Source: Bdellovibrionales bacterium
GTDB taxonomy: Bacteria > Bdellovibrionota > Bdellovibrionia > Bdellovibrionales > UBA1609
Length of the DNA stretch: 64,000 nucleotides
Direction: 5' to 3'
NCBI GenBank assembly: GCA_027317865.1
Contig: DAHVQG010000002.1
Span: 249,700 to 313,699, forward strand
The position numbers were made by a program, and so were the translations under genes. The notes beneath the pieces were generated by a model, which ran no database searches, was not told the origin of the DNA, and saw only the letters and a program-made list of their open reading frames with translations. Shown in pieces: positions 22,824 to 47,049 of the stretch (the first letter of the stretch is position 1; each line of letters opens with the position of its first letter).

Positions 22824-22873
22824 ATACGCCTCGCACCTCCCGTTTGTTCACAATTAGTCGCCACTGTGAAATG

Positions 22874-23287: not shown

Positions 23288-23453
23288 TGTTTGTATCTTT
23301 GCACTGTGGCAGGTCTAACGCCGGCACTTCATATGGATCTGGATCATAGCACGGGCTGGGTGCAAACTTTCGCAGACAAAACATCAACATTAAAAGGCCC
23401 AGCACTAACGAAGTGAACATGAAAAACAACCCCGTCCGATTATATTTATTCAC
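23196..23453 (-). CDS. Small membrane protein
   Basis: One TM helix; GTGA overlap with the upstream gene. Confidence 0.45.
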   Translation of the reverse strand: MNKYNRTGLFFMFTSLVLGLLMLMFCLRKFAPSPCYDPDPYEVPALDLPQCKDTNSAQKSNSVSSPTDCDKINEPACERQFFQHW

Positions 23454-23809
23454 TTCGAATCATCTGGGAGAAGAAAGATATTCTGTCCGTTTGCCGTCGT
23501 TGAAATCGGATCGCTACCGTAAAAGCCGGATACGCCGAACTTTTCGAGATTAAAAAGCGTGTCGCGCCGAACGTCAGCGTCTCGCTTCTCAAGCCCTTGA
23601 TAGGTTGCATAGCCGGCAATGCCGCCTATCGCGGCCGATATTAGAGCGCTTGTGAGCACGGCTTGACCCTTGTTTTGACTGTCGTGCAGGGCATTGGCGC
23701 CAATGGCACCAACAGCCGCGCCAGTTCCGATACCAAGTAGTGACGACTCCGTCACAGTGGCGCAACCTTGCAGAATACCGAAAAGTAATAGAAAACAACC
23801 CACGCACAT
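23450..23809 (-). CDS. Glycine-zipper lipoprotein
   Basis: Lipobox LQGC; GIGTGAAVGAIG and AAIGGIAG zippers; SD AAGGAGG upstream. Confidence 0.7.
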   Translation of the reverse strand: MCVGCFLLLFGILQGCATVTESSLLGIGTGAAVGAIGANALHDSQNKGQAVLTSALISAAIGGIAGYATYQGLEKRDADVRRDTLFNLEKFGVSGFYGSDPISTTANGQNIFLLPDDSK

Positions 23810-24170
23810 TCGATTAATACATCCTCCTTTTAACTCTTGATTTCACGAGAACTTTGTCTCCAACCAAAGAATAATTTTATTTATCAAAATGACTCCTAAA
23901 TTGATCGTTTCATATGATTGTTACTTCGTATAAAAGCGGCGGTTATAGATGCGCGACCGCAGCTCCATAATACCGACACTCATATCTGGATTACTTCGCT
24001 TATATTTATCAACTCAATGCTAAAGACTTGTACGCACTATCTCTTGTATGACGATTTAACGACCGTAAATATCATCATCATTAAACATACTTTCAAAAAC
24101 TCGATATTCTTCTGACTCCCCCGGAAAATCAAAAATAGTGTCCAGTAGTTTCAATTACTTGCGAAGCTCT

Positions 24171-24203
24171 GGCCCCAACTCCAGTTGGGGCCTAGTTGGG
24201 GCC
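24171..24203. repeat. Inverted plus direct repeat next to the relaxase gene (candidate oriT)
   Basis: GGCCCCAACT-CC-AGTTGGGGCC-T-AGTTGGGGCC. Confidence 0.6.
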
Positions 24204-24204
24204 G

Positions 24205-24954
24205 CTATCGGAGAAGAAATGTGGCATTTTTTCGATTTGTAAACGGCAGAGGTGATGCACCACTTCGAACAACATCCATCGTGCATGTGTAGATTTTGGG
24301 TTCAAACTGGGATTCGAATTCAGAGTCGACTCTACGGATAGATTTCTCAATTCTGGCGTCACCGCAAACATATAATGCCGCGACGATATCGTGTGAAAAG
24401 TAATACTCCGTAAGTTTTTTGCCATACCGGACGCCGCTCTTTTCAGATGCCTCAAATTCAAGGGCCAAGCGAAACGATTTTTCCTGGCCCCTCAGTACCA
24501 AGACTGCATCCGCGTTAACAGTGCCAAACGGCCCATACTCCAAAGAAGTAGTCAGTTCTCCGCAAGCTTGGAGCATATTTTCTGATATGTAATCTTCAAA
24601 CATAGCCGATTTTTCTAGCCGCGTTCGAATATCAGTCAGGGCAACGTCATGCAAATAGGAGTCGCTTTTGAAGTAAGCTTGCGTTATTTCAAATCGATAA
24701 TCTTTGCGAACTACGTTGAATCCTTTTTCGGTTAGACCATATATCAGTTCAAGTGAGCCGCCGCTAGGTATGCCGATTTTTGACAGATATCCATCCCGCA
24801 CAAGCCGCCCCAACCGGTATTGAACGGTTGGCCGTTTTGTCGACTCGAATAATCGGCACCGTATTTGGTCGTAGCTAATGGCCCGCTGCTCGAACGCAAA
24901 TTTCATAACCTTCCGGTCGCGCTCGGTAATCTGGACAGGACCCGTGCGCCGCAT
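24205..24954 (-). CDS. Replication-relaxation (Replic_Relax-like) protein, putative relaxase
   Basis: N-terminal wHTH (ITERDRKV..RLGRLVRDGYL..YGLTEKG); HDVAL, ADAVL, ALEFEAS..K PD-(D/E)xK-type motifs; next to coupling ATPase. Confidence 0.7.
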   Translation of the reverse strand: MRRTGPVQITERDRKVMKFAFEQRAISYDQIRCRLFESTKRPTVQYRLGRLVRDGYLSKIGIPSGGSLELIYGLTEKGFNVVRKDYRFEITQAYFKSDSYLHDVALTDIRTRLEKSAMFEDYISENMLQACGELTTSLEYGPFGTVNADAVLVLRGQEKSFRLALEFEASEKSGVRYGKKLTEYYFSHDIVAALYVCGDARIEKSIRRVDSEFESQFEPKIYTCTMDVVRSGASPLPFTNRKNATFLLR

Positions 24955-24955
24955 T

Positions 24956-26461
24956 TTACTTAGCCCGACCCTTCACGGTATTTTTACTGAACTCATTCGC
25001 GTCTTGAGATTTGGCTGCACTGAGTTCAAGCATTGGTTGAAAATTCCAGCTTTTGTCGTCAGAAATCGTTTTCGCTATCGCCTGAATTTTTAGCTCCAGT
25101 GCCTCTTCCGAAAGAAATGGCGCCTGAACTTCGACAAATTTGTTCCCGCCGGCCCAAACAGCGCGACCTTTGATGTCGGGTAGCGAATACGCTTTGATAT
25201 TTCCAAGCGCCGTGGTGGACCCTGCGAGCGTTGACATTTTAAACACCATTCGACCAGATAGATTTTCAAGCGTTTTGGTATCAAGCGACTCTTTAATAGG
25301 TTTTTGAGTGGCGATTACCAAATGAATTGCTGCCGCCCTTGATAATTTCGCAAGTTCATCTGTCAATTCGCGAGCGCGCGCCACGAGATCAGCTTTGGAT
25401 TTACTGACCGTCGTTTTACCGAATAAGACCGAGGCTTCATCGATTGCGACCACGATAAGATCCTTTTTATGGATCGATGGCTCAATTTTTTTGACGCCTT
25501 TTTCTTCCATAAATTGAAAACGCCTTTTCATTTCGTCTCGAACTGCGGTGAGCATTTTTACAGCGCCAACTTCGTCTTTGGCGATTCTCACGTTCGGCAA
25601 ATGGCCGAATTCTTTGAGTTCGACTCCGTGTTTTAGGTCGATCAAGTAAAACTGAATGTGCCGCCACTGACCAAGGCAAACGAGCAGCTGACATTCAAAC
25701 ACGCTTTTGCCGCCGCCGGACGTGCCGGCAATTAACAAGTGCGGTAGGTCGCGAATGTCTTGCGTTACTGTCCCGTTGACAGAAGCTCCAACCAAAAATG
25801 TAAACGGCGATTTGAGATCCTTTTCCAGGTCTTCATACAAGAACATTTTTCCGAGTTCCCGCTTGCAGAGCGAGATCTCAATAGTTCTGCGATCAGGCGA
25901 TGGTTCAATTTGTTCGACCATTTGACCAAATGCATATTCGAGATCGGATTTTTTACCTTCAAATCGATCCACCCCCACACCGATTGATCGAACAATAACT
26001 TTGCAGCGTTCGTCGTCCTTTGGTACGACCGCGAGAATTTTTGGCTGCTCACCCTTTGCGTTGCTCAAGCCAACGGAGTTGAAATTATTTTGAAGTTTTC
26101 TTCTTTCCACGAACGCTCTCAAGCCAAGTGCGCAAAGACTTGTGTATGTGACACCTGTGAGTAGTACCAAAAAGTGCGACCATTTTGGCCAGTGTTTTAG
26201 CCATGCCGTAAACTTCGCTGTAAATAGATTTGGCCAAATCCAGTGCAGTGCCTTCAAATATGCATAATCGCCATACGTCGCTGCAAATATGAGAAGAACA
26301 AGTGACGTTGAAAATATAATGAATTCGCTCGAACGAAACTTTATCCGCTTAAGACCCGCCCACGCCATTGAACCCGTCAGCGCAATGACAATGCCGACAG
26401 CGACCACAAACCGTTCAAGACTGTCGTTTTTGGCAACTATACCGTTATTCGGTGGTTTCAT
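24956..26461 (-). CDS. FtsK/SpoIIIE-family ATPase, putative coupling protein
   Basis: N-terminal TMs; PHLLIAGTSGGGKS, IDLK.GVE, EM.RR, VVAIDEA, RAAAIHLVIATQKP. Confidence 0.85.
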   Translation of the reverse strand: MKPPNNGIVAKNDSLERFVVAVGIVIALTGSMAWAGLKRIKFRSSEFIIFSTSLVLLIFAATYGDYAYLKALHWIWPNLFTAKFTAWLKHWPKWSHFLVLLTGVTYTSLCALGLRAFVERRKLQNNFNSVGLSNAKGEQPKILAVVPKDDERCKVIVRSIGVGVDRFEGKKSDLEYAFGQMVEQIEPSPDRRTIEISLCKRELGKMFLYEDLEKDLKSPFTFLVGASVNGTVTQDIRDLPHLLIAGTSGGGKSVFECQLLVCLGQWRHIQFYLIDLKHGVELKEFGHLPNVRIAKDEVGAVKMLTAVRDEMKRRFQFMEEKGVKKIEPSIHKKDLIVVAIDEASVLFGKTTVSKSKADLVARARELTDELAKLSRAAAIHLVIATQKPIKESLDTKTLENLSGRMVFKMSTLAGSTTALGNIKAYSLPDIKGRAVWAGGNKFVEVQAPFLSEEALELKIQAIAKTISDDKSWNFQPMLELSAAKSQDANEFSKNTVKGRAK

Positions 26462-27377
26462 AGTAACTACTCGATAGTGAAATGATGAGATCCGATCCGG
26501 AGTCGATCGTTACGTAGCTCGGAGTTTGGCCGAGTTTATTTGCCTGCTCATTTGCTTCCATCTGCGCCACATTCGATAGCCCATTGTAAAAGCCGTTTCT
26601 AAGATTCGCCTTTGGCGTTGGCAAGATCGACTGCCCCAGAGATTCCTTTTGTATCATGACGTCAGACATTCCGCTGATCATCGAAAGACCGATGACAGAT
26701 GCCATCCGATCGCCCGTATTGCCGTGATAATCACCAATCACGCCCGGCCGATAGTCCTTGGAGCTTAAGGCCCGCGCACTGATTTTGAATTCATTGCCGT
26801 CCGGTAAAAGCCCATGATCGAAATTGATGTAGACGCGATCGCCGTGACCGGGGTAGCTCGACTGCCCAAATAGAATAGTCTGCGGCGGAAGGCTACCGCC
26901 GCCGAATTTGTGAGCGGCGCCATATGGTAGAACAACTTGCACGCCCTCCGGGTAGCGGGTGTCAATGCCCGAAGCGAACTTCCCAATAAAATTTGATCCA
27001 ATCGGTAATTTTTCGTATGACTCGCCAGGAGTAATCACTTGTTTTGCCCGGTAGCGCAGGTGTAACGGCTGAAGCATTGTCCTAGGCGATTTAGGTGCAT
27101 GGCTCAATACGCCGCCGACTTTAGCAACTGTAGCAGCCAGTTGCGCGGCATTGGTTCCGGCGCCTTTTTGAATCAACGACACGTTACTCTGCCTAATCGC
27201 GGTCGCAACGGGTGACTTTCGAATCGAAGGCAGAAGTGAGATAACAATACCGAGAACGGTCAATGCAAACGCCGCAAGGATCGTATGTTTTCGGTTCAAT
27301 ACTTTTTTGCCGCCCTCATTCCTAAAGAAAAAATCCCGACTACGCTCACGAATATTTATTTTCAAAAATACCGCCAA
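26445..27377 (-). CDS. VirB10/TrbI-like T4SS core protein
   Basis: Single TM, then beta-rich domain (LPIGSNFIG, RVYINF..GL, GVIG) and helical tip; T4SS context. Confidence 0.65.
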   Translation of the reverse strand: MAVFLKINIRERSRDFFFRNEGGKKVLNRKHTILAAFALTVLGIVISLLPSIRKSPVATAIRQSNVSLIQKGAGTNAAQLAATVAKVGGVLSHAPKSPRTMLQPLHLRYRAKQVITPGESYEKLPIGSNFIGKFASGIDTRYPEGVQVVLPYGAAHKFGGGSLPPQTILFGQSSYPGHGDRVYINFDHGLLPDGNEFKISARALSSKDYRPGVIGDYHGNTGDRMASVIGLSMISGMSDVMIQKESLGQSILPTPKANLRNGFYNGLSNVAQMEANEQANKLGQTPSYVTIDSGSDLIISLSSSYYETTE

Positions 27378-28087
27378 GGGATACTTCGCTCCGCGAACGT
27401 ATTCATGAAGCGCAACTTGAGCGTGAGGTTCGTCCTTTGCTTTCTTGTAAACAGCAGTCGAACTCGCGCCGACTGCCCATGCTGTACGATGCCGCTTTGA
27501 ACGACAAACTCTTGAAGCGGTAACCGATTTGAGTGATAGCTGAGATCAACTTGAAGACCCGACAGCGATACCGCATTCGTCGAGATGTTCCTAACGGTGA
27601 GGTCTATGAGGTAAAAGGATCGGCCACGAAACTGCTCGATCCGATCAACCTTTACGCCGAGCAGGTGACCCACACGAAATGCGACATGGGGGTTAGAAAC
27701 TACATGAATCGGCGAAACCAAAATGGCCGGCTTCATAGGGTCCGATGAATTTTTGTCCTCCCAATACACATGGACAAGATCGTCATATCTCTCACTCGAT
27801 GGACGTAGTAAAAATCCATAAGTGTGTTTTGCACTATACACAAATAAGTTTGTTGCGACGGCACCGCGCGGTTGTACGGCGATGTCTTTGTCTGTGAACT
27901 CGATGCCGTAATAATTCGAATTACCGAGAACCACTTTTTTTGGTTTTTCTTGAAACCTCAATACGGTCGAACGGCCCATTCGTAAATAGATCGGGATCAT
28001 TTTTGACCCGTTTGCTTCGACAGTTCGCACATTACCGGCATACGCATGGCATCCGAGAAATAATGCCAACCAAATTAGCCACCGCAA
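27362..28087 (-). CDS. VirB9-like secreted T4SS protein
   Basis: Signal peptide; IYLRMGRSTVLRF..P..VVLG, TNLFV pattern; position. Confidence 0.55.
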   Translation of the reverse strand: MRWLIWLALFLGCHAYAGNVRTVEANGSKMIPIYLRMGRSTVLRFQEKPKKVVLGNSNYYGIEFTDKDIAVQPRGAVATNLFVYSAKHTYGFLLRPSSERYDDLVHVYWEDKNSSDPMKPAILVSPIHVVSNPHVAFRVGHLLGVKVDRIEQFRGRSFYLIDLTVRNISTNAVSLSGLQVDLSYHSNRLPLQEFVVQSGIVQHGQSARVRLLFTRKQRTNLTLKLRFMNTFAERSIPWRYF

Positions 28088-28684
28088 TTATTTTCCTTGG
28101 TAAACAATTTCGCCGGCTACGTAAAGACCGAGAGGATTCCACTGAGTGCGATCGCCTTGTACGAGTTGAAATGACACTTGAGTGGGGACGACAAGCGGAA
28201 CATTATCAACTCTCAATACAACATCAAACGTTGCAACCGTACTATCTTTTGTGATTTGAATGCCAAGTCCGGCCACACTTTGTTTAACCTTCTTACCCAT
28301 AAAATCCTTGTCTTTTTCTTGACTGAGTTCGGCGATTTCTTGGGCACGGAAATTATCCGTCACAAGCGGTGCAATATCTTCGCCGATGTGATTCGGGTCG
28401 AGTGTATCCCACTGGTATGCAAGTCCCACATACTCTTCAACAAAACGTTTTATGTTGTCTTCACCGAGCGGAACCGGCCGTCTAGTACCTTGAACAAATG
28501 TGTAATCGGCGCCTTGCTGAATCGCGACAATGGGATTTCGATTTGACAGCGTCAGACATAAGATAACGAGGAGCGCGCACAAACCCGCGACGACTGCGCC
28601 CCCAACTTTGTACAAAAATAAAATTCGATTGAGTGCCACCCATTGGTTAATGGGTTTGCCATTTTCAATTGCTTTGAGTAACAA
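28088..28684 (-). CDS. VirB8-like protein
   Basis: One TM; IKRFVEEYV, C-terminal NPLGLYV. Confidence 0.7.
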   Translation of the reverse strand: MLLKAIENGKPINQWVALNRILFLYKVGGAVVAGLCALLVILCLTLSNRNPIVAIQQGADYTFVQGTRRPVPLGEDNIKRFVEEYVGLAYQWDTLDPNHIGEDIAPLVTDNFRAQEIAELSQEKDKDFMGKKVKQSVAGLGIQITKDSTVATFDVVLRVDNVPLVVPTQVSFQLVQGDRTQWNPLGLYVAGEIVYQGK

Positions 28685-28685
28685 A

Positions 28686-29633
28686 TTATCTCCTTCTTTT
28701 GTTTATATTCTTAGCTTCTTGAGGTAGCCCGACTTGGGAGTACCAGTTTGAAAAATTCCTGACATGTGGCTTCATTCGGTCAGCCATGATCTGTGCGCGT
28801 CCACTGATGGGGTTAGTCAAAGGTTTAGCCGCAAAGTTCGATGCTGCAAGAGTCCCACCCACGGCCTTTCGACCCAAAACCCTTGATGAAAGCATCGCCG
28901 CCTTCGTCGCCATGAGTCCGGGTGCAGCCGCAAGGCCAGCCGCCGCCGATTGCAATCCATCGCCCAGAAGCGATTTTGCAAATAGAGGAATGAGAAGCAT
29001 CGAAACACCGATCAGTAAGTTCATCACCATCGACAAAATGTAGTCGTCAACTCCAACGACCTTTGGATTCATTGCAAGCTTTAATAAAAGTGCGCCGAGG
29101 AGGGTCCATAAAACCTTCCATGTGGCGACACTCACCAGACCCCGATATAAATTGCCCGTGATGCGAGCCGTGGACTTGGGCACGTAGCAAAGAATCATAA
29201 GCGGCGCGCACACAAACAATATTGCCCAAACAAAATTCATGAGCGTAATCGACGCGAAAAATCCGATATAAGCGATGAGGTAAGCGCCAATTGCAAAAAT
29301 ATAAATAACGCTTGCTCTAAGATCAAATAGGCTACCTGACTTACCCTGTGAGTTCGGGCCAAGGTGCTTGATTGCGGTCCATAAAGCGTGCGTGTGGTCG
29401 ATGTGTGCCGTTATTTGATCACCCAGCATACCGATCGTGTTAACTACAGTCGCAAAAGAAACGAGAAGCAGGATCGAAATAACCGTTCGCTTGAGTATAT
29501 CGTTGACGTTGGGCGAGCTTTTTAAGAATTCAAAAACTATCAAAAGCGTGACCACAGCCGGGAGCAGTATCCAATAAACTTGAACCATCTCGCCGTGGAG
29601 ACTTTTCGCATATACGAATAAATTTTCAAACAT
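28686..29633 (-). CDS. VirB6-like polytopic membrane protein
   Basis: Multiple TMs, APLMI motif, Ala/Gly-rich tail; position. Confidence 0.65.
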   Translation of the reverse strand: MFENLFVYAKSLHGEMVQVYWILLPAVVTLLIVFEFLKSSPNVNDILKRTVISILLLVSFATVVNTIGMLGDQITAHIDHTHALWTAIKHLGPNSQGKSGSLFDLRASVIYIFAIGAYLIAYIGFFASITLMNFVWAILFVCAPLMILCYVPKSTARITGNLYRGLVSVATWKVLWTLLGALLLKLAMNPKVVGVDDYILSMVMNLLIGVSMLLIPLFAKSLLGDGLQSAAAGLAAAPGLMATKAAMLSSRVLGRKAVGGTLAASNFAAKPLTNPISGRAQIMADRMKPHVRNFSNWYSQVGLPQEAKNINKRRR

Positions 29634-29635
29634 TT

Positions 29636-30322
29636 CTAAAATCTCGATAAGCTTGTATCAAGCTTGAAATTCTGAAATCCACCGTCGAGATCGCGATCCA
29701 CTTTTTGAAAATCAGTTACCTGATCCTTGTCGGCTTTGTTATTCATGGCCAGCTGTTCGCTCTCAAGTTTCAGCATTTGAGTATTGAGGCGAATAAGCTG
29801 GCTGAGACTTCGCAAAATCTCAGCACTCGTTTCTGCCTGCATCCGAGCGGCACCCTTGGGTGAAGCCTGGCGGGCTTGTACCAGTATCTTTATCGAATTT
29901 GCTTCTTGTTCCGACGAATACTGCTTAAATGAGTCGACCATGCGTAGTGACTCAGCGACACTTTGATCGTTAAGAAGCTCTAATGCCGCAGCTCTACTCT
30001 TCGGCACTCGACCATAAATCGACGAGATCATGTCAACGGCTTGTTTGAAATTTTGTAGATCAGCCAATATTCGATCATCATGCACTGGAAGAGTCGAGAG
30101 AAGTCCGATCGAATTTTCGAGACCGGAATTTATAACGTGCATGTAATCGGACATGTCACGCCCTTGCTGGACCATTGTTTCGAATTCCTGGTAGTCTTGG
30201 ATATTCTGAGCCAGTATCTTTAATAAGATCGGAATGTCACCTCCGAAGAAATCCGCCCTGGCGGGCGGACTTATGAATAATAGCGTAAACGCTGTAACTG
30301 CCGTCCAGCGAAGTATTTTAAT
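29636..30322 (-). CDS. VirB5/TrbJ-like secreted helical protein, probable ATT start
   Basis: Frame extends 49 codons upstream of ATG 30175 to ATT 30322 after SD AAAGGAGGT, giving signal peptide (M)KILRWTAVTAFTLLFISPPARA-DFFGGD. Confidence 0.6.
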   Translation of the reverse strand: MKILRWTAVTAFTLLFISPPARADFFGGDIPILLKILAQNIQDYQEFETMVQQGRDMSDYMHVINSGLENSIGLLSTLPVHDDRILADLQNFKQAVDMISSIYGRVPKSRAAALELLNDQSVAESLRMVDSFKQYSSEQEANSIKILVQARQASPKGAARMQAETSAEILRSLSQLIRLNTQMLKLESEQLAMNNKADKDQVTDFQKVDRDLDGGFQNFKLDTSLSRF

Positions 30323-30346
30323 ACGACCTCCTTTGAATCAGTTCGA

Positions 30347-32788
30347 TTAAGCGCTCTTCTTCTGTTCATCTTTTTCACTCGCCAGCTTTTTTAGAATCTC
30401 GATTTTTTTCAGCTCCGGATGCCTTCTTTCAAGCTCTTGAATTCGCGCTTTATCGCCGGCGTCGCTGGTGCAGATCCAGTATGAAAGTGGCTCGGAGGTC
30501 AACCGTAAAACGATTTGATTTTCATCCTGTAGAAAAAAGAATTCACTATACGCACCTTTTACGACTTCTAAGCTCTTTATCGCTTCAACCTGCGCGTCGG
30601 TGAAATCAAATGTTTCTTGAAAATCCTTCCAGTCAATTTTTCGTTGCTTTAGAATAATGACGCTTGTCGAGTTTGGCATAAGCGCATCGCGGATCTCGGG
30701 ATCAGCCAAAAAATCGCGATAGTTCTGGCTAATGCACCAAATACCGGCGTTGTACTTTCGCCACGTTCTGTAGCAGGTAATAACAAACTGCTTTGATAGC
30801 TCGCCGCTTTTAAAAAACCGCTCGGCCTCGTCACAAATGAGTAGATATGGTCGCGCGAGATCCGATGCCGCTGCATCCTGAATGTACGATGTCAAAAGTA
30901 ATAGCAAAATGTCTTTAAGGTCCGGATGGTTCGTGAGTCCATTTACCTCGATGGTGACAAGATCCTTTGACAAATTGATTGTACTTGGTCCATCGAGCAT
31001 TCTACCGTAAGCCGTTTCACCACACCACGAAAATAGAATCTGCGCGAATTTTTGCATTTCTGGATCGTTATGCTTTTCTAGTGCGGTTTTCAGATCCGAC
31101 AGAAATGGAACACGCGCGGCCGACCCTTTGTATACGGCAAAAATCGCTTCTTCGAGCATGGCCTTTTCACGTTTTCCTAAAGATTTTTGGTTCGGGTCTT
31201 TAAGAATAAGTTCTAAAATTGCGAGTATCAATTTAACCCGCGCCGGAGATGGCGTGGCTTCGCCGTTTGGAAGATCAAACACATTAATCCGAATGCCGCT
31301 TTCTAAGTTCAAGTCGACAAATTCGCCGTCTAATACTTCGAGCAATTTTTGCGAACTTGCGCCATTATCGATCCAAAAAAGCCGGGGCGTCGGTTTTTGA
31401 CCGTAAAACATGAGCATCAGCTGCGAGATCGTGAAGCTCTTGCCGCTGCCTGTTCCGCCGAAAATCAGACCGTTCCACGCGGGCAATTCCTGCGCAAACG
31501 GTGAAAACGAAAATAGACCGCCGTCACGGTTTGGGATGAGGCACACTGGGCTTTGGTTCCCGCGCCAGTTACCATAGAGCGGGAGAAGATGTGCAACATT
31601 ACTACTCTTCATTTTGTAGTGGCGAAGGCCGCTACACGCACCGGGTAGGGCGTCGATAAAAACGTCAAAACCTGGCAGCGTTTCTACGATCCCTTCAGAT
31701 TGACCCATCTGTCGAAACGCTTTTAGAACTTCGTCCGATTTCTCTTCGAGCTCCTCTTGCGATTTAGCCCAAATGATTACGGTAAAATCCATCGATACGA
31801 GTCGCTCACTTCCGTCGAGTAATTCACGTAGCAAGGATTCGATATCGTTTAGTTTTGACTCGCTTTCGAGGTCAGAAACATTTTCTGATCCGCCGGCCAT
31901 CGAATTGGCCACGCGACGCTTGAGTTCTAGGCGCTGCCGTTCGCGTATTTGATCCAAAATTTTTATATTCTGGCTCATCCAAAAGTGAAACGGTAACGAC
32001 AAAGTCAAATTGTTAATTATAGAGCTATATGTCGAACCTTCAGGAAGCGTTTTCAAGGTGACTGTGCGGAAAAAATAATCGCCAACTCGCAAATGACCAC
32101 GATGGACTTCAATATCTGAAAGTGTCAACTGTTCAATTATTGACGGAGCGAGTGGGTCCCCGGATTCACGCATCGACGGTAATGGGTAGTGTTCTGCGCG
32201 ATCAAGGTTTAGGTATTGAAATACAAGACTAAACCACTCCTCGGGCTCAAGTTTTGCCGGCTTTAGCCCCGAATGTATCAGCGAAGATTCAATTTGCTTT
32301 AACGCTCGATCGAATTTTTCTCTATGAGCTGTATATTCTGACTCTGCAATGGGTTCGTATTTTTTTTGCGACTCCCAAAAACGGCGCTTTTTATAAGAAT
32401 ATGGTTTGCTTCGAATAAAAAGATAGAATTCCGGCACGAAGTAATTTTTTTGCGCTTCATTTCTCTTTAGAAACGATATCCGAGCCTCGGCAATTGGCCG
32501 ATAAATCTCTGGGGCTTCACTTGAAATCGCTGCATGTTCGGTGAGCAGGGCGCTTACATTTGGGGTCACGCGATAAAAGATCTGAAGCTTGAGCCCTTCT
32601 TCCGTACCAATTAACAGATTTTCGACTTTTCTTGTAAAGGTATTGATTTCGTCGGGTGTGCGGCACGAAATATCGACTCCTGTTAGCCGAAATGCACCGC
32701 CAAGTGAGCCGTCAGAATACACCATTAAATCTTGATCGAAGTGCCAAAACGGCAGGCGATCCGCGAGACCCGCAATATTATTTTTCAT
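30347..32788 (-). CDS. virB4: VirB4/TraC-family T4SS ATPase
   Basis: Walker A GGTGSGKS, IDNGAS, Walker B LICDEA, RKYNAG..ISQ; about 810 aa. Confidence 0.9.
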   Translation of the reverse strand: MKNNIAGLADRLPFWHFDQDLMVYSDGSLGGAFRLTGVDISCRTPDEINTFTRKVENLLIGTEEGLKLQIFYRVTPNVSALLTEHAAISSEAPEIYRPIAEARISFLKRNEAQKNYFVPEFYLFIRSKPYSYKKRRFWESQKKYEPIAESEYTAHREKFDRALKQIESSLIHSGLKPAKLEPEEWFSLVFQYLNLDRAEHYPLPSMRESGDPLAPSIIEQLTLSDIEVHRGHLRVGDYFFRTVTLKTLPEGSTYSSIINNLTLSLPFHFWMSQNIKILDQIRERQRLELKRRVANSMAGGSENVSDLESESKLNDIESLLRELLDGSERLVSMDFTVIIWAKSQEELEEKSDEVLKAFRQMGQSEGIVETLPGFDVFIDALPGACSGLRHYKMKSSNVAHLLPLYGNWRGNQSPVCLIPNRDGGLFSFSPFAQELPAWNGLIFGGTGSGKSFTISQLMLMFYGQKPTPRLFWIDNGASSQKLLEVLDGEFVDLNLESGIRINVFDLPNGEATPSPARVKLILAILELILKDPNQKSLGKREKAMLEEAIFAVYKGSAARVPFLSDLKTALEKHNDPEMQKFAQILFSWCGETAYGRMLDGPSTINLSKDLVTIEVNGLTNHPDLKDILLLLLTSYIQDAAASDLARPYLLICDEAERFFKSGELSKQFVITCYRTWRKYNAGIWCISQNYRDFLADPEIRDALMPNSTSVIILKQRKIDWKDFQETFDFTDAQVEAIKSLEVVKGAYSEFFFLQDENQIVLRLTSEPLSYWICTSDAGDKARIQELERRHPELKKIEILKKLASEKDEQKKSA

Positions 32789-33083
32789 AGATATTGGTTC
32801 GTAGCCTTTCTTGAAATTCAGGTTGCGCGCCTGCGGCATAATGGCCCGGCGTTAAGTAAAATCGCAACAGGTGGAGTAAAAATCCATCAGGTTTATTGCG
32901 CTTTCCTAGATATAGTACGAGCAGCATCGCAACTGGCACACATACGACAATCGGTAAAGGTAGGTGAAGAACATTGAGAATCGAGAGAGCAATCAAAGCC
33001 GCGATGAGATCGAGGGCCTCCATGCCCCCGATCTTCACTCTAACGTCAAGCCCACGGTGAACTGCGGACCTATTCAACTCCAC
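32778..33083 (-). CDS. VirB3-like membrane protein
   Basis: Two TMs, directly upstream of and overlapping virB4. Confidence 0.65.
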   Translation of the reverse strand: MELNRSAVHRGLDVRVKIGGMEALDLIAALIALSILNVLHLPLPIVVCVPVAMLLVLYLGKRNKPDGFLLHLLRFYLTPGHYAAGAQPEFQERLRTNIYEK

Positions 33084-33413
33084 CTAATAACCTCCGCCAA
33101 CAGCACCTTGCAGCCAGTGAATTATAATCGGCGCGAGACATCCGACGATGCATGCAATGATAATTAGTATCATTCGACCTTTTGCACCCTGATCACCAGA
33201 AACCGCAAGAATAGCGGCATAGACAAGGCCCAAGATAGAAATCGCTGGCAATACGACAGTGATGAGCTTGCCTGTTAAACCTGCAACACGCCCCGACAGT
33301 TCATCGGCGCCAACGCCGCCATAGCTTTGTGCGAATGCGAAATGCGGGTAAAGAGTCATCAAAGCAAATACGCCGATCAAAACGCACGCCAATGCAATAG
33401 TTGACTTTTTCAC
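33084..33413 (-). CDS. VirB2/TrbC-like pilin
   Basis: Signal ending AFA, then two hydrophobic helices. Confidence 0.7.
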   Translation of the reverse strand: MKKSTIALACVLIGVFALMTLYPHFAFAQSYGGVGADELSGRVAGLTGKLITVVLPAISILGLVYAAILAVSGDQGAKGRMILIIIACIVGCLAPIIIHWLQGAVGGGY

Positions 33414-33766
33414 TCGGTAACGTCTGGCACAAGAACGAGTCGCTGCGGCAAATATCGGCCAATCTTCATGTACACGTGACCATTCGTCTCGCCACTTGAA
33501 TATCCATTACCTACAGGTACACGATGAGAAAATTTACCGTTAATATCAACTGGCGAATGAACGACGTAATCGATTCGATCTTCATTGGCCTCTTTCGGTC
33601 GAAGATAGAGAATGGTGCGAGGCGCATCGAGCACAAGTCGATATTCGCCAAATTCAGGGACATAAAATGCAACACCGGCATTATATTTTTCGCCGCTTTC
33701 AGGGTCTAACCAAAACAACTCTTCTTTTTTTGTTTTTTTAATTTTTTCCATTTTAGAAATCCTCAA
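33410..33766 (-). CDS. Hypothetical protein in the tra operon
   Basis: Beta-rich ORF of about 115 aa, coupled to the pilin gene. Confidence 0.6.
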   Translation of the reverse strand: MRISKMEKIKKTKKEELFWLDPESGEKYNAGVAFYVPEFGEYRLVLDAPRTILYLRPKEANEDRIDYVVHSPVDINGKFSHRVPVGNGYSSGETNGHVYMKIGRYLPQRLVLVPDVTE

Positions 33767-33810
33767 ATTATTTGTAATTGACCGACAGTAAATCCATTCC
33801 GAGATTTTAC

Positions 33811-34152
33811 TTACGCCGCGACGAGTTCCTCTCCTGAATCTTTTCTCAGGGCTGAAACCAGTTCACTTCGCAAATTATCGAGTGCATGGCTAAAAATCTT
33901 TATTGTTAAATCGATCGGCAGTTCAATTTGTGCGGCGATTGAAGAAAACGACAAGCCCTCCCAGAATCTCAAATAAACAACCAAACGTTCTTCGCGAGAC
34001 AGTTTGGCGACACGGTCGCGCACGAGTGCGGCCTGGCGGTCTTTTCGTTGGTCGTAGCGCCAATGTTTTTTTCGTTCATAATCAGCGAAAACTCTATTAT
34101 CCATCTCACGCTCAATCATTTTTGGACTCCAATATTGAAGTTTCGTGTTCAC
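33811..34152 (-). CDS. Sigma-70 region-4-like HTH protein
   Basis: LSREERLVVYLRFWEGLSFSSIAAQIELP...ALDNLR. Confidence 0.75.
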   Translation of the reverse strand: MNTKLQYWSPKMIEREMDNRVFADYERKKHWRYDQRKDRQAALVRDRVAKLSREERLVVYLRFWEGLSFSSIAAQIELPIDLTIKIFSHALDNLRSELVSALRKDSGEELVAA

Positions 34153-34280
34153 CAGAACCGTCCGTATAACCCGTATTTGATTCGAGCTTCATCGCGTGCC
34201 TTTCTTAATCGTTCCTCATCAACTTTTATTTCAAAAAGTATATAGTGGACCCGCTTAAAAATTTGGCGGAGCTTATCCAT
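34149..34280 (-). CDS. 43-aa small protein (below ORF-track cutoff)
   Basis: MDKLRQIFKRVHYILFEIKVDEERLRKARDEARIKYGLYGRFW; SD AAGAGG; overlaps both neighbours. Confidence 0.6.
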   Translation of the reverse strand: MDKLRQIFKRVHYILFEIKVDEERLRKARDEARIKYGLYGRFW

Positions 34281-34752
34281 TGGATGCCTCTTTTGAAAAT
34301 GGGATTACATTCGAGGTTTGCCTCTCGACAGTTTCATCGGGGCGCCGAAAACTAACGACGTTTTCAATGCTGACAACGCGAGCTTCTGGCTTGCCATTAC
34401 CGCCGTTTTCTAGAAATTCCTGACACTCGATACAAAAAGTGCAGTCCGGCTGTGCATCGAGACGCCTGGGATCAATTTCTTCTTCGCATCCTTCACACAC
34501 ACCGAAAATCCCCATGTCGATTCGTCTGAGTGCTCGCGCCAATTTGCCAGCTTGCCTTTCGATATGTCGAAACATACCCATTCGTTGATTGCGATCGCTC
34601 AGTTCTTTTGCTTCATCGAGTGGGTCGGGTAAAATTAATGGGTCTTCGACAATCGCGCGCAATTCGGATTCGAGACCCTCCCACATTTGGTGGAGGGCGC
34701 GCTGTCGCTCCAAGATATTGTCTTTGAATTTTTGTAGCTGTTCGTTTGTCAC
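34273..34752 (-). CDS. TraR/DksA C4 Zn-finger protein
   Basis: DPLDEA coiled-coil tip; CEGC...RRL.A.P....CIEC; likely GTG start 34752 after GAGGAGG. Confidence 0.88.
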   Translation of the reverse strand: MTNEQLQKFKDNILERQRALHQMWEGLESELRAIVEDPLILPDPLDEAKELSDRNQRMGMFRHIERQAGKLARALRRIDMGIFGVCEGCEEEIDPRRLDAQPDCTFCIECQEFLENGGNGKPEARVVSIENVVSFRRPDETVERQTSNVIPFSKEASNG

Positions 34753-34813
34753 GTTTTTCTCCTCCTCGTGGGGGGAAAAATTAGCCCCACGACTTTCTGT
34801 TACTGCAAGAGGA

Positions 34814-34830
34814 GTCAGCGATCGTGCCAA
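34814..34830 (-). promoter_or_regulatory. Putative sigma54 promoter of the tra operon
   Basis: TTGGCACGATCGCTGAC: perfect -24 element; GG-N10-GA with non-consensus -12. Confidence 0.6.
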
Positions 34831-34897: not shown

Positions 34898-34973
34898 TGA
34901 ACGCAGTTACGTCCACGAATTTTGAATTTCAATGTGTTATCGCAAACATGATGAAAAGACGTATCTACGTCCA
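34898..34973. promoter_or_regulatory. Two palindromic enhancer-like sites
   Basis: TGAACGCA-GT-TACGTCCA (34898-34915) and AAGACGTA-TC-TACGTCCA (34956-34973). Confidence 0.7.
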
Positions 34974-37234: not shown

Positions 37235-37265
37235 AATATTATTACACCCGATCGACTAAAACGAC

Positions 37266-39527: not shown

Positions 39528-39654
39528 CTAAATTTCCCCTACAAAAAGTTTATCACAGTTTTAATAGCCATAAGCGTGTTTCAGATACTCTTGTGCATTT
39601 TTAGGAAAACAAGTCTCAAAATGAGGCAATGACCAGTCACAATTCTACACAGCA

Positions 39655-41126: not shown

Positions 41127-42578
41127 TTAGGCCGACGGCAGCGATTCGTTTCCATGTCTCCCCACGCCGACGCCGACGTCATCGAGACTGACATCGTGGT
41201 CGTTCAGCTCCGAACGAAGACCGTGCCTATCAATTAAAGTGTGAAGCGTCGACGGGCTTATACCCATCCGCGCGGCAGTCTGGCGAAGCGTTGGGCCGAG
41301 GCTAATTTGATACCGAATGAATTCGCGTTCCGCGTTCTGTTGCTGCGTCTTAAATCGTTTATGGCTGGCGTCCAGTACCGGGTTCGCTTTACCGTCAAGG
41401 CTCTGCATTTTCTTGTCGAGGTGATGAAATTCAATTGTATCACTTCGAGTGTTCGTAAGGAGCGCTGACACGTACCCATCCAATTCGCCAACATTTCCGG
41501 GCCACGGATATTTTTCAAGCTGTCGCATGGCCGCTTTACGGAATTCTTTTCGCTCGCCGGTCTCCTTGAAATGTTTGTCGCAAAGATGAAGCACGATCGG
41601 CTCTATATCTTCAGTTCGCTCGCGCAAAGGTGGAATTTCGATGCAAAGAAATTTGATTCTATAATAAAGGTCGGGCAAAAATGATTTGTTGGCTACGCGA
41701 GCCTCAAGGTCAGGATGCGAAGCCACGATCAGCCTAAAATCGACATCAACCTCTTGTTGAGCGCCCACTCGTCGAACTTTCTTCTCGCGAATTACACGCA
41801 GTAGTTTCGCTTGAGCCTGCGGAGCCATGTGATGGATCTCATCCAGAAACACGGTGCCACCTCGCGCGGCTTCGAAAATTCCAACTTTCCGTGCTATAGC
41901 GCCCGTGAACGCGCCTTTCTCATGCCCAAACAGCTCTGACTCAAACAAATTGCCCTCATCCGAGACAGTACAACTGAAGGTAAAAAATTTCTCAGCAGGA
42001 CCATTATGAATCATGCGCGCAAAGATCTCTTTGCCGACCCCAGTTTCTCCGAGAAGGAGCACCGTCTTTTTGGATTGCCGGTAATCCAACGCGTTTGAGA
42101 TACCCTCTGCAAGGGCGCGCGATCTCCCAGCGAGATTTTGCCCTGTAATGATCTTGGTAGCTTCATCTACAGACAGCGTCGGTTTAACCTTTCGCACTTT
42201 TTCATATAGCTCACAGGCTTTACCCAGAGATTCTTTGAGAACGTCGTTGTTTTCGGTGCGTTCAATATAGTTTAGGGCTCCAGCCCGAATAGTGGCCACA
42301 GCGTCATCTTTCGAACCTTCGTAAGCGGTGTAAATAATAGTTATGATTTCGCCGTTTAGTTTTCTTATTTCATCCGCCGTTTGCGGGCCATTTTTTCCGG
42401 GCATACGAAAGTCAATGACCGCTACCGAATATTCTTTAGATGCTGCACGAATACAGTCGATAGCCTCCTCGCCGCTTGTGACGGTGTCGATATTATAACC
42501 CCACCGCTGAATCAAACTTCGTATATCGATTAGGTTGTCTTCGTCATCGTCTACAATGAGAATGTTATGTTTGAGCAT
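41127..42578 (-). CDS. Sigma54-dependent response regulator (REC-AAA+-HTH, NtrC/AtoC family)
   Basis: [46 protein letters not shown]-terminal HTH; start ATG 42578 after GAGG. Confidence 0.93.
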
Positions 42579-44019
42579 GCGCCACCTCGTATCGTTCGGT
42601 TCCTCGGTCGATGTTTGCCGGGCAAAACGAAATAAAAAACTCTGTTCCGCGTCCCACTTCTGACGAAAAGCTAATCGTTGCATTAAAGGAGTCACAAATA
42701 CCTTTTACGACCCCAAGGCCGATGCCGGTGCCTCGAAGAGGTTTTGTTGTAAAATCAACTTCGAAAATTCTTTCGCGATTTTCAATCGGGATACCGCATC
42801 CGCAATCTTTTACAATCATCGTCGGTCTGCCGTCCGCATTCGTAATCCGGATCTCGATTGTTTTCTCCTCGCACTCCGCCATTGCTGCAATTGAATTTTG
42901 CACAATATTTTCGAGTACCCTGTAAAACTCGATTTTGTTTATGTTCGCTGGCGGGACAATTCCGTCTTGGAAAAAATCGATTTGCACGTTATTCCGTAAA
43001 AATTCATGATCGTCGCGCAAACTCGAAATGTAATTACTGACTTCTTCCTTCAATAAAATGACGCTATCGCGACGATCACTAGACGCTCGTTTAATCAATG
43101 GGTAACGAACGAGTCGGATGATGTCACCCAATTGGCTAATAGAGCGTTTAACACGCGCGATTTCTTCGGTATCGTAGCGACCCGTTAATTCAATGGTGCT
43201 GACCATGTTCTCGACTTGCATAGCAAGACGCGAATGGGGTGTTTTTAGGTCGTGGCCAATCTCACGAAGAAGGCCGAAATGGGCCAAAGCGCGAGCTTCA
43301 TTTGCGGCAACTTCTTGAAGTCGTCTTATTTCTAAATGGAGGCCGTCTACTGCTTCTTTCATCGGCGCTAAGTCTGTAAACGGAGCAATCGACCGATTCT
43401 CAATGCGCCTACTTGGCGCATCCTTGAGATGTTTTGCCCATTCCTGAAAGAGTGAAGACAATTTTCGGGTTGCATTGCCGATTGCACTGAATATCCCGAT
43501 CGTGTTGCCGACAAATGCACCAAACAATACAAAGAGAAGGCAGAATAAAATGTTGTAATCGAGTGCGGGCTTGAGTGTAAGGTCAAGGTACCCGAATAGA
43601 TTTTTGTGTCCTGGCTCGTCAAAATATAGTGGGTATAACATGCTCACGCTACGAAAGTGCGGCGACCAACATGACACGTTGGGGCTGAAGCAGTTGGGTC
43701 GGACGGGCGACTTTGGATCAACCGAATAGATTTCTTTTAATTTTGCATTTCGAACGACTGCGGATTCTCCAGCTTTTAACCCAAGCGCTGTTTGCATTTG
43801 AATTTCGGCGTCGCGCACGTCTCCTTGTAGAATCATGGGCCGGTATGCAGTTGCAGCCGCGCGTGCAACGGTCAAAAGCTGTCGCTCCGATACATTTTTT
43901 TGAGCGTAAAATAAAATTGGAGCGGCGATTGCGGTTGCAACTACGAATGAGACAAGCGACCATCGTATCGTTTGCCGTCGAAAATATGATTCTAAAGATG
44001 TGCCTTTTTCGTCGCGCAT
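42565..44019 (-). CDS. Membrane sensor histidine kinase
   Basis: Two TMs around a periplasmic domain; GHDLKTP, NIVQNS, DCGCGI, FTTK, GTGIGL. Confidence 0.92.
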   Translation of the reverse strand: MRDEKGTSLESYFRRQTIRWSLVSFVVATAIAAPILFYAQKNVSERQLLTVARAAATAYRPMILQGDVRDAEIQMQTALGLKAGESAVVRNAKLKEIYSVDPKSPVRPNCFSPNVSCWSPHFRSVSMLYPLYFDEPGHKNLFGYLDLTLKPALDYNILFCLLFVLFGAFVGNTIGIFSAIGNATRKLSSLFQEWAKHLKDAPSRRIENRSIAPFTDLAPMKEAVDGLHLEIRRLQEVAANEARALAHFGLLREIGHDLKTPHSRLAMQVENMVSTIELTGRYDTEEIARVKRSISQLGDIIRLVRYPLIKRASSDRRDSVILLKEEVSNYISSLRDDHEFLRNNVQIDFFQDGIVPPANINKIEFYRVLENIVQNSIAAMAECEEKTIEIRITNADGRPTMIVKDCGCGIPIENRERIFEVDFTTKPLRGTGIGLGVVKGICDSFNATISFSSEVGRGTEFFISFCPANIDRGTERYEVAHAQT

Positions 44020-45494: not shown

Positions 45495-45532
45495 GGGCTG
45501 AAGCAGTTGCGTGAAGTGCGACTGCTCCGCCC
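45495..45532 (-). terminator. Stem-loop between peptide and SBP genes (partial terminator or mRNA stabiliser)
   Basis: Minus strand GGGCGGAGCAGTCGC-ACTTCAC-GCAACTGCTTCAGCCC then ATTTT. Confidence 0.6.
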
Positions 45533-45540: not shown

Positions 45541-45690
45541 TTATCCGCAAGACGCGCCAGATGCGCCAAATTGTACTATTCCGCCACAAGGCTCGGCACC
45601 TTGGGCTGACGTCATCAAGTGTCGAGCACCAAATGAAAAATAGGTGCCCGCGATTAACATCGCGAACATCAGATTTTTTAGTTTGGACAT
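45541..45690 (-). CDS. 49-aa putative RiPP precursor / signalling peptide
   Basis: SD AGGAG before ATG 45690; MSKLKNLMFAMLIAGTYFSFGARHLMTSAQGAEPCGGIVQFGASGASCG; starts 19 nt after the YcaO stop. Confidence 0.8.
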   Translation of the reverse strand: MSKLKNLMFAMLIAGTYFSFGARHLMTSAQGAEPCGGIVQFGASGASCG

Positions 45691-45709
45691 TTTTTCTCCT
45701 TCGACTCCG

Positions 45710-46815: not shown

Positions 46816-46832
46816 AGCATTTCGCGGGCCAA
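46816..46832 (-). promoter_or_regulatory. Putative sigma54 promoter of the ycaO-peptide-SBP-HK-RR operon
   Basis: TTGGCCCGCGAAATGCT = GG-N10-GC, about 50 nt upstream of the ycaO ATG. Confidence 0.7.
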
Positions 46833-46930: not shown

Positions 46931-47049
46931 TGGACGTAGTTACGTCCACCTGGCGGGTGGCAAACCGGCGATTGTAGGTACAAGTCAGCAAAAGTATTCA
47001 ACTTATCTTATTTATTTGAATTTATGAGTGGTGGACGCGTTTACGTCCA
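46931..47049. promoter_or_regulatory. Two palindromic enhancer-like sites
   Basis: TGGACGTA-GT-TACGTCCA (46931-46948, perfect) and TGGACGCG-TT-TACGTCCA (47032-47049); further half-site at 47325-47332. Confidence 0.75.

Follow-up and report, generated by a model that had tools for sequence, protein, structure and literature searches.

What does a very short open reading frame (ORF) encode when it lies directly behind a stand-alone ycaO gene, and what would respond to its product? The question is raised by a 64,000-nt stretch of contig DAHVQG010000002.1 (assembly GCA_027317865.1) of a Bdellovibrionales bacterium, here called the window, in which a 49-codon ORF forms the second gene of a conserved five-gene cassette that encodes YcaO, the peptide, a family-5 binding protein, a sensor kinase and a sigma-54 response regulator. 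The explanation that is given somewhat better than even chances is that the peptide, modified by YcaO and exported by Sec, serves as a signal: the binding protein and the kinase would sense it, it would act back on the operon that encodes it, and its control would probably extend to a conjugative element. Conserved gene order, the architecture of the peptide, the promoter, the palindromes, the YcaO fold and the link to genes of a type IV secretion system (T4SS) are what the comparison establishes; for the chemistry, the export and the binding we infer the steps that are set out below. The features of the locus are collected in Table 1.

Table 1. Features of the ycaO-peptide locus and of the conjugation region in the window (positions count from the first nucleotide of the window; a point in the strand column marks palindromes; aa, amino acids).
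Feature	Position	Strand	Basis and remarks
Precursor peptide gene	45541..45690	-	49 aa + stop; translation, homologue comparison
Ribosome-binding site AAGGAG	45696..45701	-	5 nt before ATG; read from sequence
Stand-alone YcaO, 351 aa, without N-terminal hydrophobic segment	45710..46765	-	Pfam, fold model, alignment
Sigma-54 -24/-12 promoter-like element TGGCCCGCGAAATGCT	46816..46831	-	~50 nt upstream of ycaO start; two consensus mismatches
Perfect palindrome TGGACG-N6-CGTCCA, proximal putative activator site	46931..46948	.	Sequence
Second perfect palindrome TGGACG-N6-CGTCCA	47032..47049	.	101 nt from first
Stable RNA hairpin between peptide stop and binding-protein start	45495..45532	-	-23.6 kcal/mol, z -3.3; AUUUUAU follows
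Family-5 periplasmic solute-binding protein, 486 aa, signal-like N-terminal segment	44025..45485	-	Pfam/NCBIfam, topology check, fold model
Sensor histidine kinase, 484 aa	42565..44019	-	Pfam/NCBIfam, topology check
NtrC-type sigma-54-dependent response regulator	41127..42695	-	Pfam/NCBIfam; GAFTGA motif read in translation
Conjugative-element genes	20726..34752	-	Domain matches; DksA/TraR gene with probable GTG start at 34752
Promoter-like element TTGGCAC-N15-CTTGCA	34804..34830	-	Before DksA/TraR-type first gene of T4SS operon
Third palindrome copy, 1 mismatch	34898..34915	.	Upstream of conjugation/T4SS operon
Fourth, weaker palindrome copy TGGACG-N6-CGTCTT, 2 mismatches	34956..34973	.	Upstream of T4SS operon; read from sequence

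Comparison of homologues confirms the 49-codon ORF as a real gene, as far as sequence can establish this. Among the loci fetched for comparison (17 from genomes and 19 from metagenomes), 28 keep sequence after ycaO, and at 27 of these a small ORF with a ribosome-binding site begins 10-30 nt past the homologous ycaO. This recurrence of the same architecture, at YcaO identities of 25-55% across the peptide-bearing loci, is more than chance. The 27 partner ORFs comprise 16 complete short forms (45-60 aa), one of which is the window's own record (L002), eight long forms (97-118 aa) and three that are cut by contig ends. At the 28th locus (L028), ycaO is frameshifted and followed by just a 29-codon frame, and this case is counted as ambiguous. 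In the window, the start supported by the homologues is the ATG at 45690, which lies 19 nt past the ycaO stop codon (TAG, 45710-45712). A longer, 72-codon version starting at an ATG at 45759, taken from a mechanical ORF list, was rejected, as it overlaps ycaO and has no counterpart among the homologues. The peptide matches no family in Pfam or NCBIfam, and seven other small partner proteins found no meaningful family there either, with two chance-level matches (E 0.004-0.007).

The alignment of the short forms falls into three zones: an M-S-x-x-K-K start with a hydrophobic run and S-G-S, a middle L-x3-A-x2-A-[Q/E] stretch, and a hypervariable Gly/Ser/His-rich tail that ends in G-x-[S/T]-[C/G] and 1-5 further residues. 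The peptide of the window follows this layout, with a signal-like N-terminus, a middle L-x3-A-x2-A region and a Gly-rich C-terminus ending in G-A-S-C-G; it carries Cys at positions 35 and 48 (C35 and C48), two Ser among the last 18 residues and no His in the last 25. By a rule check, each of the 16 short forms begins with 1-3 Lys/Arg, contains a run of 13-26 residues free of charge and offers small residues for a -3/-1 site at positions 19-22; second candidate cleavage sites fall in the A-x-x-A zone. The long forms carry predicted cleavable signal peptides with canonical sites (P-A-H-A↓N/S-E; A-H-A↓N/S, A-L-A↓S/N), and their C-termini read S-P-S-C-W-T-E-P-I, N-P-T-C-W-T-K or P-S-S-[F/I], with the general pattern P-[S/T]-[C/S]-[W/F/I]. 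The C-terminal G-x-[S/T]-[C/G] motif is present in 16/16 short forms, which gives 1-2 modifiable sites per peptide; the dyad reads [S/T]-C in nine of them and [S/T]-G or [S/T]-[S/V] in the other seven. In all peptide forms, the last 2-9 residues include a Ser/Thr that lies in a Gly-rich stretch and in most cases precedes a Cys. Judged by these alignments, the conserved core feature is the Ser/Thr-Cys (or Ser/Thr-Gly) dyad near the C-terminus and not a bracketing pair of Cys.

An earlier note on this DNA, made from the letters of the window, had described the ORF as a YcaO precursor with a Sec-signal-like leader and a Cys-bracketed core. Its 49-aa sequence, with two Cys and two Ser in the core, is reproduced by translating the minus strand, and the translation of 45541-45759 (-) contains the peptide that it quoted. 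The check it had proposed, a search for short ORFs after homologous ycaO genes, returns an equivalent at 27 of the 28 loci, the opposite of the absence that it had named as speaking against it. Its pairing of the ORF with YcaO likewise holds up, as the ORF appears to be the conserved partner of the enzyme, and its signal-like leader agrees with the predicted Sec character of every homologue's N-terminus and with the canonical cleavage sites of the distant long forms. The Cys bracket does not survive as a defining feature: past the signal region, only 4/16 short forms have a second Cys, and a disulfide-bracketed ring was rejected as the hallmark of the family on the same count.

The enzyme encoded upstream is a divergent YcaO. 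It exceeds the cut-off of Pfam PF02624 (34 bits against 25.7, E 2.6e-8) with a match that covers residues 104-253 only, and it resembles the NCBIfam SagD/TOMM cyclodehydratase model weakly (41 bits against a cut-off of 219, E 8.5e-11; TOMM, thiazole/oxazole-modified microcin). Its AlphaFold2 model has a mean confidence (pLDDT) of 93.7, and Foldseek returned 41 solved chains at E<=0.001; all among the matches listed are YcaO enzymes, with template-modelling (TM) scores of 0.4-0.56. The best of these are the small methanogen thioamide YcaOs (PDB 6peu, 6cib), followed by LynD, McbD, E. coli YcaO and TruD. The family profile matched none of the sequences of solved structures at E<=0.01, which indicates a divergent branch of YcaO. 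Invariant across 27 YcaO sequences are residues of Glu/Arg-rich motifs (E73, K83, E87, E90, R91, E126, E129, R130, D131, E216), which are candidate counterparts of the ATP/Mg ligands of solved YcaOs, and P347-H348 at the C-terminus. The gene is single-copy in its own genome, a 99.2% complete assembly in which no match to TfuA (PF07812) was found, and no E1-like, Ocin-ThiF or fused recognition domain is conserved around YcaO across the loci. In a clustered protein collection, 29 close relatives of 335-414 aa are labelled just 'YcaO-like family protein' or 'hypothetical', and a profile search of 1.84 billion representatives found 103 matches at E<=1e-30 and 765 at E<=1e-10.

The order of the five cassette genes is kept wherever contigs are long enough. 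All-against-all clustering of the flanking ORFs, which left out L002 (it duplicates the window) and five distant loci, found only YcaO (30 loci), the binding protein (21), the kinase (17) and the regulator (16) to be conserved, besides TraC/VirB4 in seven loci. The same clustering turned up no conserved exporter, protease, immunity gene, dehydrogenase or E1-like partner around the cassette, nor a conserved metal transporter, ABC permease or metal-resistance gene; for an FMN-dependent dehydrogenase, this negative covers the cassette. A cytoplasmic tetratricopeptide-repeat (TPR) receptor and Opp import genes are likewise absent from the conserved set, and the gene after the binding protein encodes a kinase, not a permease or ATPase. 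The binding protein matches the SBP_bac_5 Pfam model over its N-terminal part only; its model (pLDDT 89.5) fits NikA, AapF with a signalling molecule, OppA, CntA and PrgZ about equally well (TM 0.73-0.81). A complex prediction of its residues 18-486 with residues 20-49 of the peptide scored 0.00, which is evidence neither way. The kinase has two hydrophobic segments (18-40 and 147-181), from which a periplasmic loop of ~105 aa is predicted. In the regulator, the Sigma54_activat domain is matched at E 3e-52; the GTG listed as the start of its gene overlaps the kinase gene, and the true start probably lies further downstream. In the topology check, the binding protein and the kinase have periplasm-facing features and YcaO has none; a binding protein, a kinase with a periplasmic loop and an NtrC-type regulator thus stand in one operon whose order is conserved in 16-21 loci.

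These results bear on further parts of the earlier note. Its statement that no dedicated exporter or protease is encoded nearby agrees with the clustering across loci, in which only YcaO, the binding protein, the kinase and the regulator are conserved in the cassette, and cytoplasmic YcaO action before export, which it had assumed, is consistent with an enzyme without a signal sequence. As a whole, its outline holds (a YcaO substrate that bears a Sec-type signal and lacks a dedicated exporter), but it was wrong about the Cys bracket and incomplete on the gene context: the genes for the binding protein, the kinase and the sigma-54 regulator, the autoregulatory sigma-54 promoter and the conjugative-element setting were all missed.

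Upstream of ycaO, the cassette carries what would be expected of an operon that regulates itself. A TGGCnn-N5-TTGCT element lies 32-73 nt upstream of the ycaO start in 24/24 loci, and elsewhere the same -24/-12 criterion found only 50 other matches in 470,194 nt (both strands). A window-wide search for the sigma-54 pattern with two mismatches performed at chance level (62 found, 62 expected), and it is therefore the position conserved across the loci, not the pattern itself, that makes the site of the window credible. The rpoN gene is present in the same genome outside the window (G000:C22:3-878), with the N-terminal 259 of 434 model positions assembled; because it is cut by the contig end, the sigma-54 DNA-binding domain is not matched. 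The exact 18-mer palindrome of the window occurs in the 2.65-Mb genome in the two copies before ycaO only. Palindrome arrays with a spacing of 89-101 nt recur across the loci at about -150 to -350 from ycaO, and their half-sites are locus-specific: TGGACG in the window and CGACGA, TGCGCG, TGCGCA, CCACAG or TGACGA in others. Operators that co-vary between loci at fixed positions before a sigma-54 promoter are expected of an operon-encoded enhancer-binding regulator, which argues for a self-activating cassette. Most likely, the cassette activates itself, judging from this arrangement, and the regulator presumably binds the paired palindromes.

Between the peptide gene and the binding-protein gene, the hairpin listed in Table 1 folds more stably than any of 200 shuffles (0/200), and a hairpin follows the peptide gene in ~10/15 short-form loci, as read from sequences and folds (eight of them were folded). 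A simple scan for sigma-70 promoters and terminators around the locus returned shuffle-level results and did not flag it. The hairpin is a possible attenuator or stabiliser. In operons of RiPPs (ribosomally synthesised peptides that are modified after translation) and of pheromones, a hairpin so placed raises the precursor transcript over the downstream genes.

The cassette is also consistently associated with conjugation genes. The window contains, at 20726-34830, genes for a serine recombinase, Replic_Relax, an FtsK/SpoIIIE-type ATPase, TrbI, CagX, TraC/VirB4, a TrbC/VirB2-like pilin, a sigma70_r4-like protein and a DksA/TraR zinc-finger protein, and TraC/VirB4 is the fifth gene family common to several loci (seven in the flanking-ORF clustering). 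A survey of the best YcaO matches (E<=1e-36) from a 401-genome phylum sample covered 20 genomes with 21 YcaO loci; TraC lies 1.7-14 kb from YcaO on the same contig in 12 of them. In six of the remaining nine, it lies on other contigs (G377, G263, G332, G122, G364, G266), in assemblies of 120-490 contigs, and in three surveyed genomes (G226, G215, G295) it was not found. The locus-specific palindromes also recur upstream of the T4SS operon, namely in the window and in L027, L012, L005 and L008. L027 has three CCACAG palindromes 2.3 kb from ycaO and directly upstream of the T4SS operon, with L012 and L005 arranged alike, and L008 has a three-palindrome array after the regulator gene and before a DksA/TraR-type ORF. 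One-mismatch matches occur about three times per genome in a reversed-pattern control, and it is therefore the position that counts for the T4SS copies, not the match itself. In addition, a TTGGCAC-N14/15-CTTGCA element is found in the window, L005, L008 (9388-9414), L009 and L024, 25-65 nt before the first T4SS gene. In the phylum sample, 69 of the 401 Bdellovibrionota genomes have any YcaO match at E<=1e-10, and the cassette is present in a metagenome-assembled genome (MAG) labelled Lysobacteraceae (L012). The cassette therefore has the appearance of a regulatory module belonging to a mobile T4SS element, which fits both the patchy distribution and the occurrence in the Lysobacteraceae-labelled MAG.

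Taken together, the following sequence of events is proposed. The precursor would be made in the cytoplasm, where the ATP-dependent stand-alone YcaO would activate a backbone amide at the G-x-[S/T]-[C/G] dyad (S47-C48 in the window); since YcaO lacks a signal sequence, modification would come before export. The most likely product would be an oxazoline and/or a thiazoline (-18 Da each), with a thioamide as the main chemical alternative. The signal-like N-terminus would then take the modified peptide through Sec, signal peptidase I would cleave after residue 21 (S-F-G↓A) or later, at T-S-A↓Q or Q-G-A↓E, and a peptide of ~17-28 residues would be released into the periplasm or the medium. There, the periplasmic family-5 binding protein would capture it and present it to the periplasmic loop of the kinase. 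The kinase would control the NtrC-type regulator, which on the paired palindromes would activate the sigma-54 promoter of ycaO and so close a positive feedback loop; the regulator would probably also control the neighbouring T4SS/conjugation operon through copies of the same palindrome.

Several points weigh against this scheme. On the chemical side, YcaO has no recognisable partner or recognition domain (E1-like, Ocin-ThiF, TfuA) by which it would find its substrate and from which the chemistry could be assigned. Its closest solved folds are those of thioamide-forming enzymes, and Cys is missing from the dyad in 7/16 short peptides; a Ser/Thr-Cys dyad after Gly resembles azoline sites, yet with the thioamide-forming folds and the missing partner an azoline is a tentative assignment. 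As to export, the signal peptides of the short forms are predicted from a rule check, and no way out through the outer membrane is apparent for a peptide of 2-3 kDa; the signal may thus stay periplasmic. As to sensing, the fold matches of the binding protein mix binders of metal chelators (NikA, CntA) with binders of peptides and pheromones (OppA, PrgZ, AapF); the fold therefore does not settle the ligand and leaves room for a metal-peptide one. Finally, the -12 element of the window is the weakest of all loci (TGGCCC-N5-ATGCT, with ATGC in place of TTGC), the helix-turn-helix proteins of the T4SS operon are alternative candidates for binding the palindromes, and the N14-15 spacing of the element before the T4SS operon is not that of sigma-54, which fits poorly with a sigma-54 activator acting there.

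Of the competing explanations, the one that survives best, although it is improbable, is a periplasmic metal-binding peptide of the bufferin or methanobactin kind, in which an azoline or thioamide and an upstream His or Cys chelate a metal. The resulting metal-peptide complex would be recognised by the binding protein, which is NikA/CntA-like, and metal status would be reported through the kinase. The fold matches to NikA with a metal chelator and to CntA with a staphylopine-metal complex fit this idea, as do weak NCBIfam matches of the binding protein to nickel- and opine-metal-binding proteins, and a count in the alignment places a His 4-17 residues before the C-terminal dyad in ~10/16 short peptides and a Cys in others. 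Sec-exported periplasmic RiPP metallophores do exist, namely the bufferins (PMC11626156). However, the window peptide lacks the His in its last 25 residues, the conserved set holds no metal transporter, ABC permease or metal-resistance gene, the ranking of family-5 folds does not discriminate ligands, and the consistent partner of the cassette is a conjugation/T4SS operon, which metal homeostasis does not explain.

Slightly less probable again is an uncleaved, membrane-anchored small regulator similar to MgrB, whose N-terminus would be a signal anchor and whose modified periplasmic tail would modulate the kinase or the binding protein in cis. The size of the peptide, its single N-terminal hydrophobic segment and its Cys-containing periplasmic tail recall small kinase-modulating membrane proteins; the -3/-1 sites of the short forms are rule-based, with several candidates per peptide, and no export route across the outer membrane is evident. 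Against it stand the canonical cleavable signal peptides predicted for the distant long forms and the dedicated high-affinity binding protein, which a tethered modulator would not need, and the proposed hairpin-boosted, feedback-driven expression pattern suits a diffusible signal.

An antimicrobial linear azol(in)e peptide, that is, a weapon similar to microcin B17 with the binding protein, kinase and regulator serving only to regulate its production, is considered unlikely. The Gly-rich core with G-S-C-G recalls the heterocyclisation sites of microcin B17, the SagD/TOMM model is matched (E 8.5e-11), if far below its cut-off, and the hosts are predatory-type bacteria. The peptides nevertheless offer only one or two modifiable residues each, the cassette lacks a conserved dehydrogenase, immunity gene, dedicated exporter and leader protease, and the sensor genes are never missing, in contrast to the hypervariability of the variable region. 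Just as unlikely is a small secreted protein that is not a YcaO substrate at all, with YcaO modifying the binding protein, the kinase or a ribosomal target, or acting as an ATP-dependent accessory of the kinase, and the ORF encoding an independent secreted ligand or chaperone. Distant Bdellovibrionota loci, in which YcaO has the binding protein on one side and the kinase on the other and the small secreted protein is two genes off, agree with this, as does the lack of any visible leader-recognition domain. In the clade of the window, however, ycaO and the peptide gene are coupled, with a gap of 19 nt in the window, and the feature kept in all peptide forms, a Ser/Thr-Cys dyad in a Gly- or Pro-rich context, is the type of site on which YcaO enzymes act. 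A chance open frame in an intergenic spacer, suggested by the shortness of the ORF and its lack of a Pfam or NCBIfam match, is refuted as far as comparison can go by the same architecture with a ribosome-binding site in 27/28 loci, and next to no weight is left for it.

How does a signalling cassette with a modified, sensed peptide compare with known systems? It shares with microcin B17 (McbBCD), with LynD/TruD and with TOMMs and linear azol(in)e-containing peptides (LAPs) in general a YcaO-fold, ATP-dependent enzyme beside a small Gly-rich precursor with Ser/Thr/Cys. Unlike TOMM/LAP clusters, it has no conserved E1-like/Ocin-ThiF partner, fused recognition domain, FMN dehydrogenase, exporter, protease or immunity gene, and its precursor bears a Sec-type signal instead of a classical leader and one or two modifiable residues. 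The methanogen thioamide YcaOs, which form the thioglycine of McrA (6peu, 6cib), are the best structural matches, of similarly small size, without a fused domain and, as in the genome of the window, without TfuA; TfuA-independent YcaOs exist. The two differ in that the match is remote (TM ~0.5, identity 10-14%), in that the substrate is a small secreted peptide in one case and a large enzyme in the other, and in that the Ser/Thr-Cys dyad of the cassette points to cyclodehydration and not to thioamidation of Gly.

The use of a Sec signal by a modified precursor has its closest precedent in the bufferins. These have Sec-signal precursors, general export after cytoplasmic modification, Cys-derived heterocycles and a periplasmic product, and the source calls Sec-signal RiPP precursors rare, with the precedents found with enzymes of the MNIO class: bufferins and, by citation, chryseobasin and oxazolin (PMC11626156). 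The precursor of the cassette would agree with them in its N-terminal Sec-type signal and in modification before general export. Bufferins depend on an MNIO with a DUF2063 partner (PMC11626156), whereas the enzyme here is a YcaO and no MNIO (DUF692) is among the conserved genes; they are metallophores under sigma/anti-sigma control and are not known to involve a binding-protein/kinase sensor or a link to conjugation.

On the sensing side, the Phr peptides to which the earlier note had likened the ORF remain a fair comparison for export, as both would be small Sec-exported signalling peptides, but not for sensing, which here would be extracytoplasmic through a binding protein and a histidine kinase and not by Opp import to a cytoplasmic receptor. 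PrgZ, which on enterococcal conjugative plasmids captures the peptide pheromone that controls conjugation, is likewise a family-5 binding protein linked to a conjugative element and is among the fold matches. Phr and PrgZ peptides are unmodified, Opp-imported and read by cytoplasmic receptors in Gram-positive bacteria, whereas the cassette has no permease or ATPase genes and its receptor would be a membrane kinase in a diderm. LuxP-LuxQ, TorT-TorS and AioX-AioS-AioR resemble the cassette in that the genes for a periplasmic binding protein and for a histidine kinase with a periplasmic loop stand together. AioXSR is a binding-protein-dependent sensor with a sigma-54-dependent regulator, and the regulator of the cassette is sigma-54-dependent as well. 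The ligands of these three systems are small molecules, made elsewhere or environmental, whereas the putative ligand here is a ribosomal peptide that is encoded and modified in the same operon.

Peptide pheromones are textbook knowledge in Gram-positive bacteria and rare in diderms, and the known products of YcaO enzymes are antibiotics, cofactor-like modifications or toxins, which are not known to act as signals. A literature search, whose coverage excluded most subscription journals, found no paper on a YcaO with a Sec-signal precursor or with such a sensor cassette. The cassette therefore appears to be an undescribed variant of RiPP-type peptide signalling, for which the comparative support is good. 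Carried further, it might represent a new class of Gram-negative cell-cell signal: a ribosomal peptide, in which a minimal YcaO without a partner forms the heterocycles, would leave through Sec, be detected extracytoplasmically by a dedicated binding protein and kinase, and serve as the pheromone switch of an integrative conjugative element. A strain-specific modified peptide would then set the expression of transfer genes in Bdellovibrionota and, by transfer, in other phyla, with three elements encoding the specificity together: the hypervariable peptide, the binding protein and the co-varying operator palindromes. This wider claim is doubtful for now. Should the proposed scheme hold, the making, export and sensing of a modified peptide by one compact cassette of five genes would be a new signalling logic, its minimal, partner-free YcaO would be useful for enzymology, YcaOs would become the second enzyme class after the MNIOs to use Sec-signal precursors, and there would be a possible handle on the regulation of conjugative elements in predatory bacteria. 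Each step lends itself to simple tests by heterologous expression.

Related arrangements extend beyond the clade of the window. More distant Bdellovibrionota YcaOs (313-350 aa) also accompany a family-5 binding protein and a kinase; in L042, L044, L046, L051 and L053, the order is regulator, a secreted protein of 75-96 aa, family-5 binding protein, a YcaO of 313-331 aa and kinase. The small proteins of these loci have predicted signal peptides and a Cys-containing C-terminal motif (G-G-S-I-C-W, S-G-I-R-C-G-G, G-S-S-T-C-G, G-T-S-T-C-L), and neither Pfam nor NCBIfam has a family for them. The alternative order points to a family of YcaO-linked sensor modules that spans the phylum. In L013, the ycaO at 6001-6570 is truncated to 189 codons, and genes for the peptide, the binding protein and the kinase do not follow; this is probably a decayed copy of the cassette.

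Some further observations concern the surroundings. The promoter-like element before the T4SS operon resembles the sigma-54 -24/-12 boxes set one helical turn too far apart; an alternative reading is a -35 box, TTGGCA, combined with a weak -10 box, TGCAnT. In the L027 version, the spacer is 3 nt only. In L008, the T4SS operon directly follows the regulator gene. In the Lysobacteraceae-labelled MAG (L012), the ORF after the regulator (11530-12270, -) has an N-terminus that looks similar to serine recombinases/resolvases and is a putative one, and the locus-specific palindrome has three further copies at 12360-12546. Between the cassette and the T4SS operon of the window, three genes without Pfam matches (388, 753 and 683 aa; 35183-40821, -) have no counterparts at other loci; the two large proteins (753 and 683 aa) have lipoprotein- or signal-like N-termini and are rich in Ser/Thr/Gly/Asn, and the 388-aa protein (39655-40821), considered as an outer-membrane exit route, has no homologue at other loci. 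On the other side, beyond the 880-nt intergenic region, the gene for a 1337-aa RHS/YD-repeat protein (RHS_repeat, TEN_YD-shell; 47650-51663, +) and the ycaO operon are divergent. Another NtrC-type sigma-54 response regulator, which has a Fis-type HTH_8 domain, is encoded 5 kb away (52183-53685, -), with no adjacent kinase noticed. A second, canonical family-5 binding protein (9747-11375, -; full-length SBP_bac_5, E 1e-91) is encoded among housekeeping genes of aromatic amino-acid biosynthesis.

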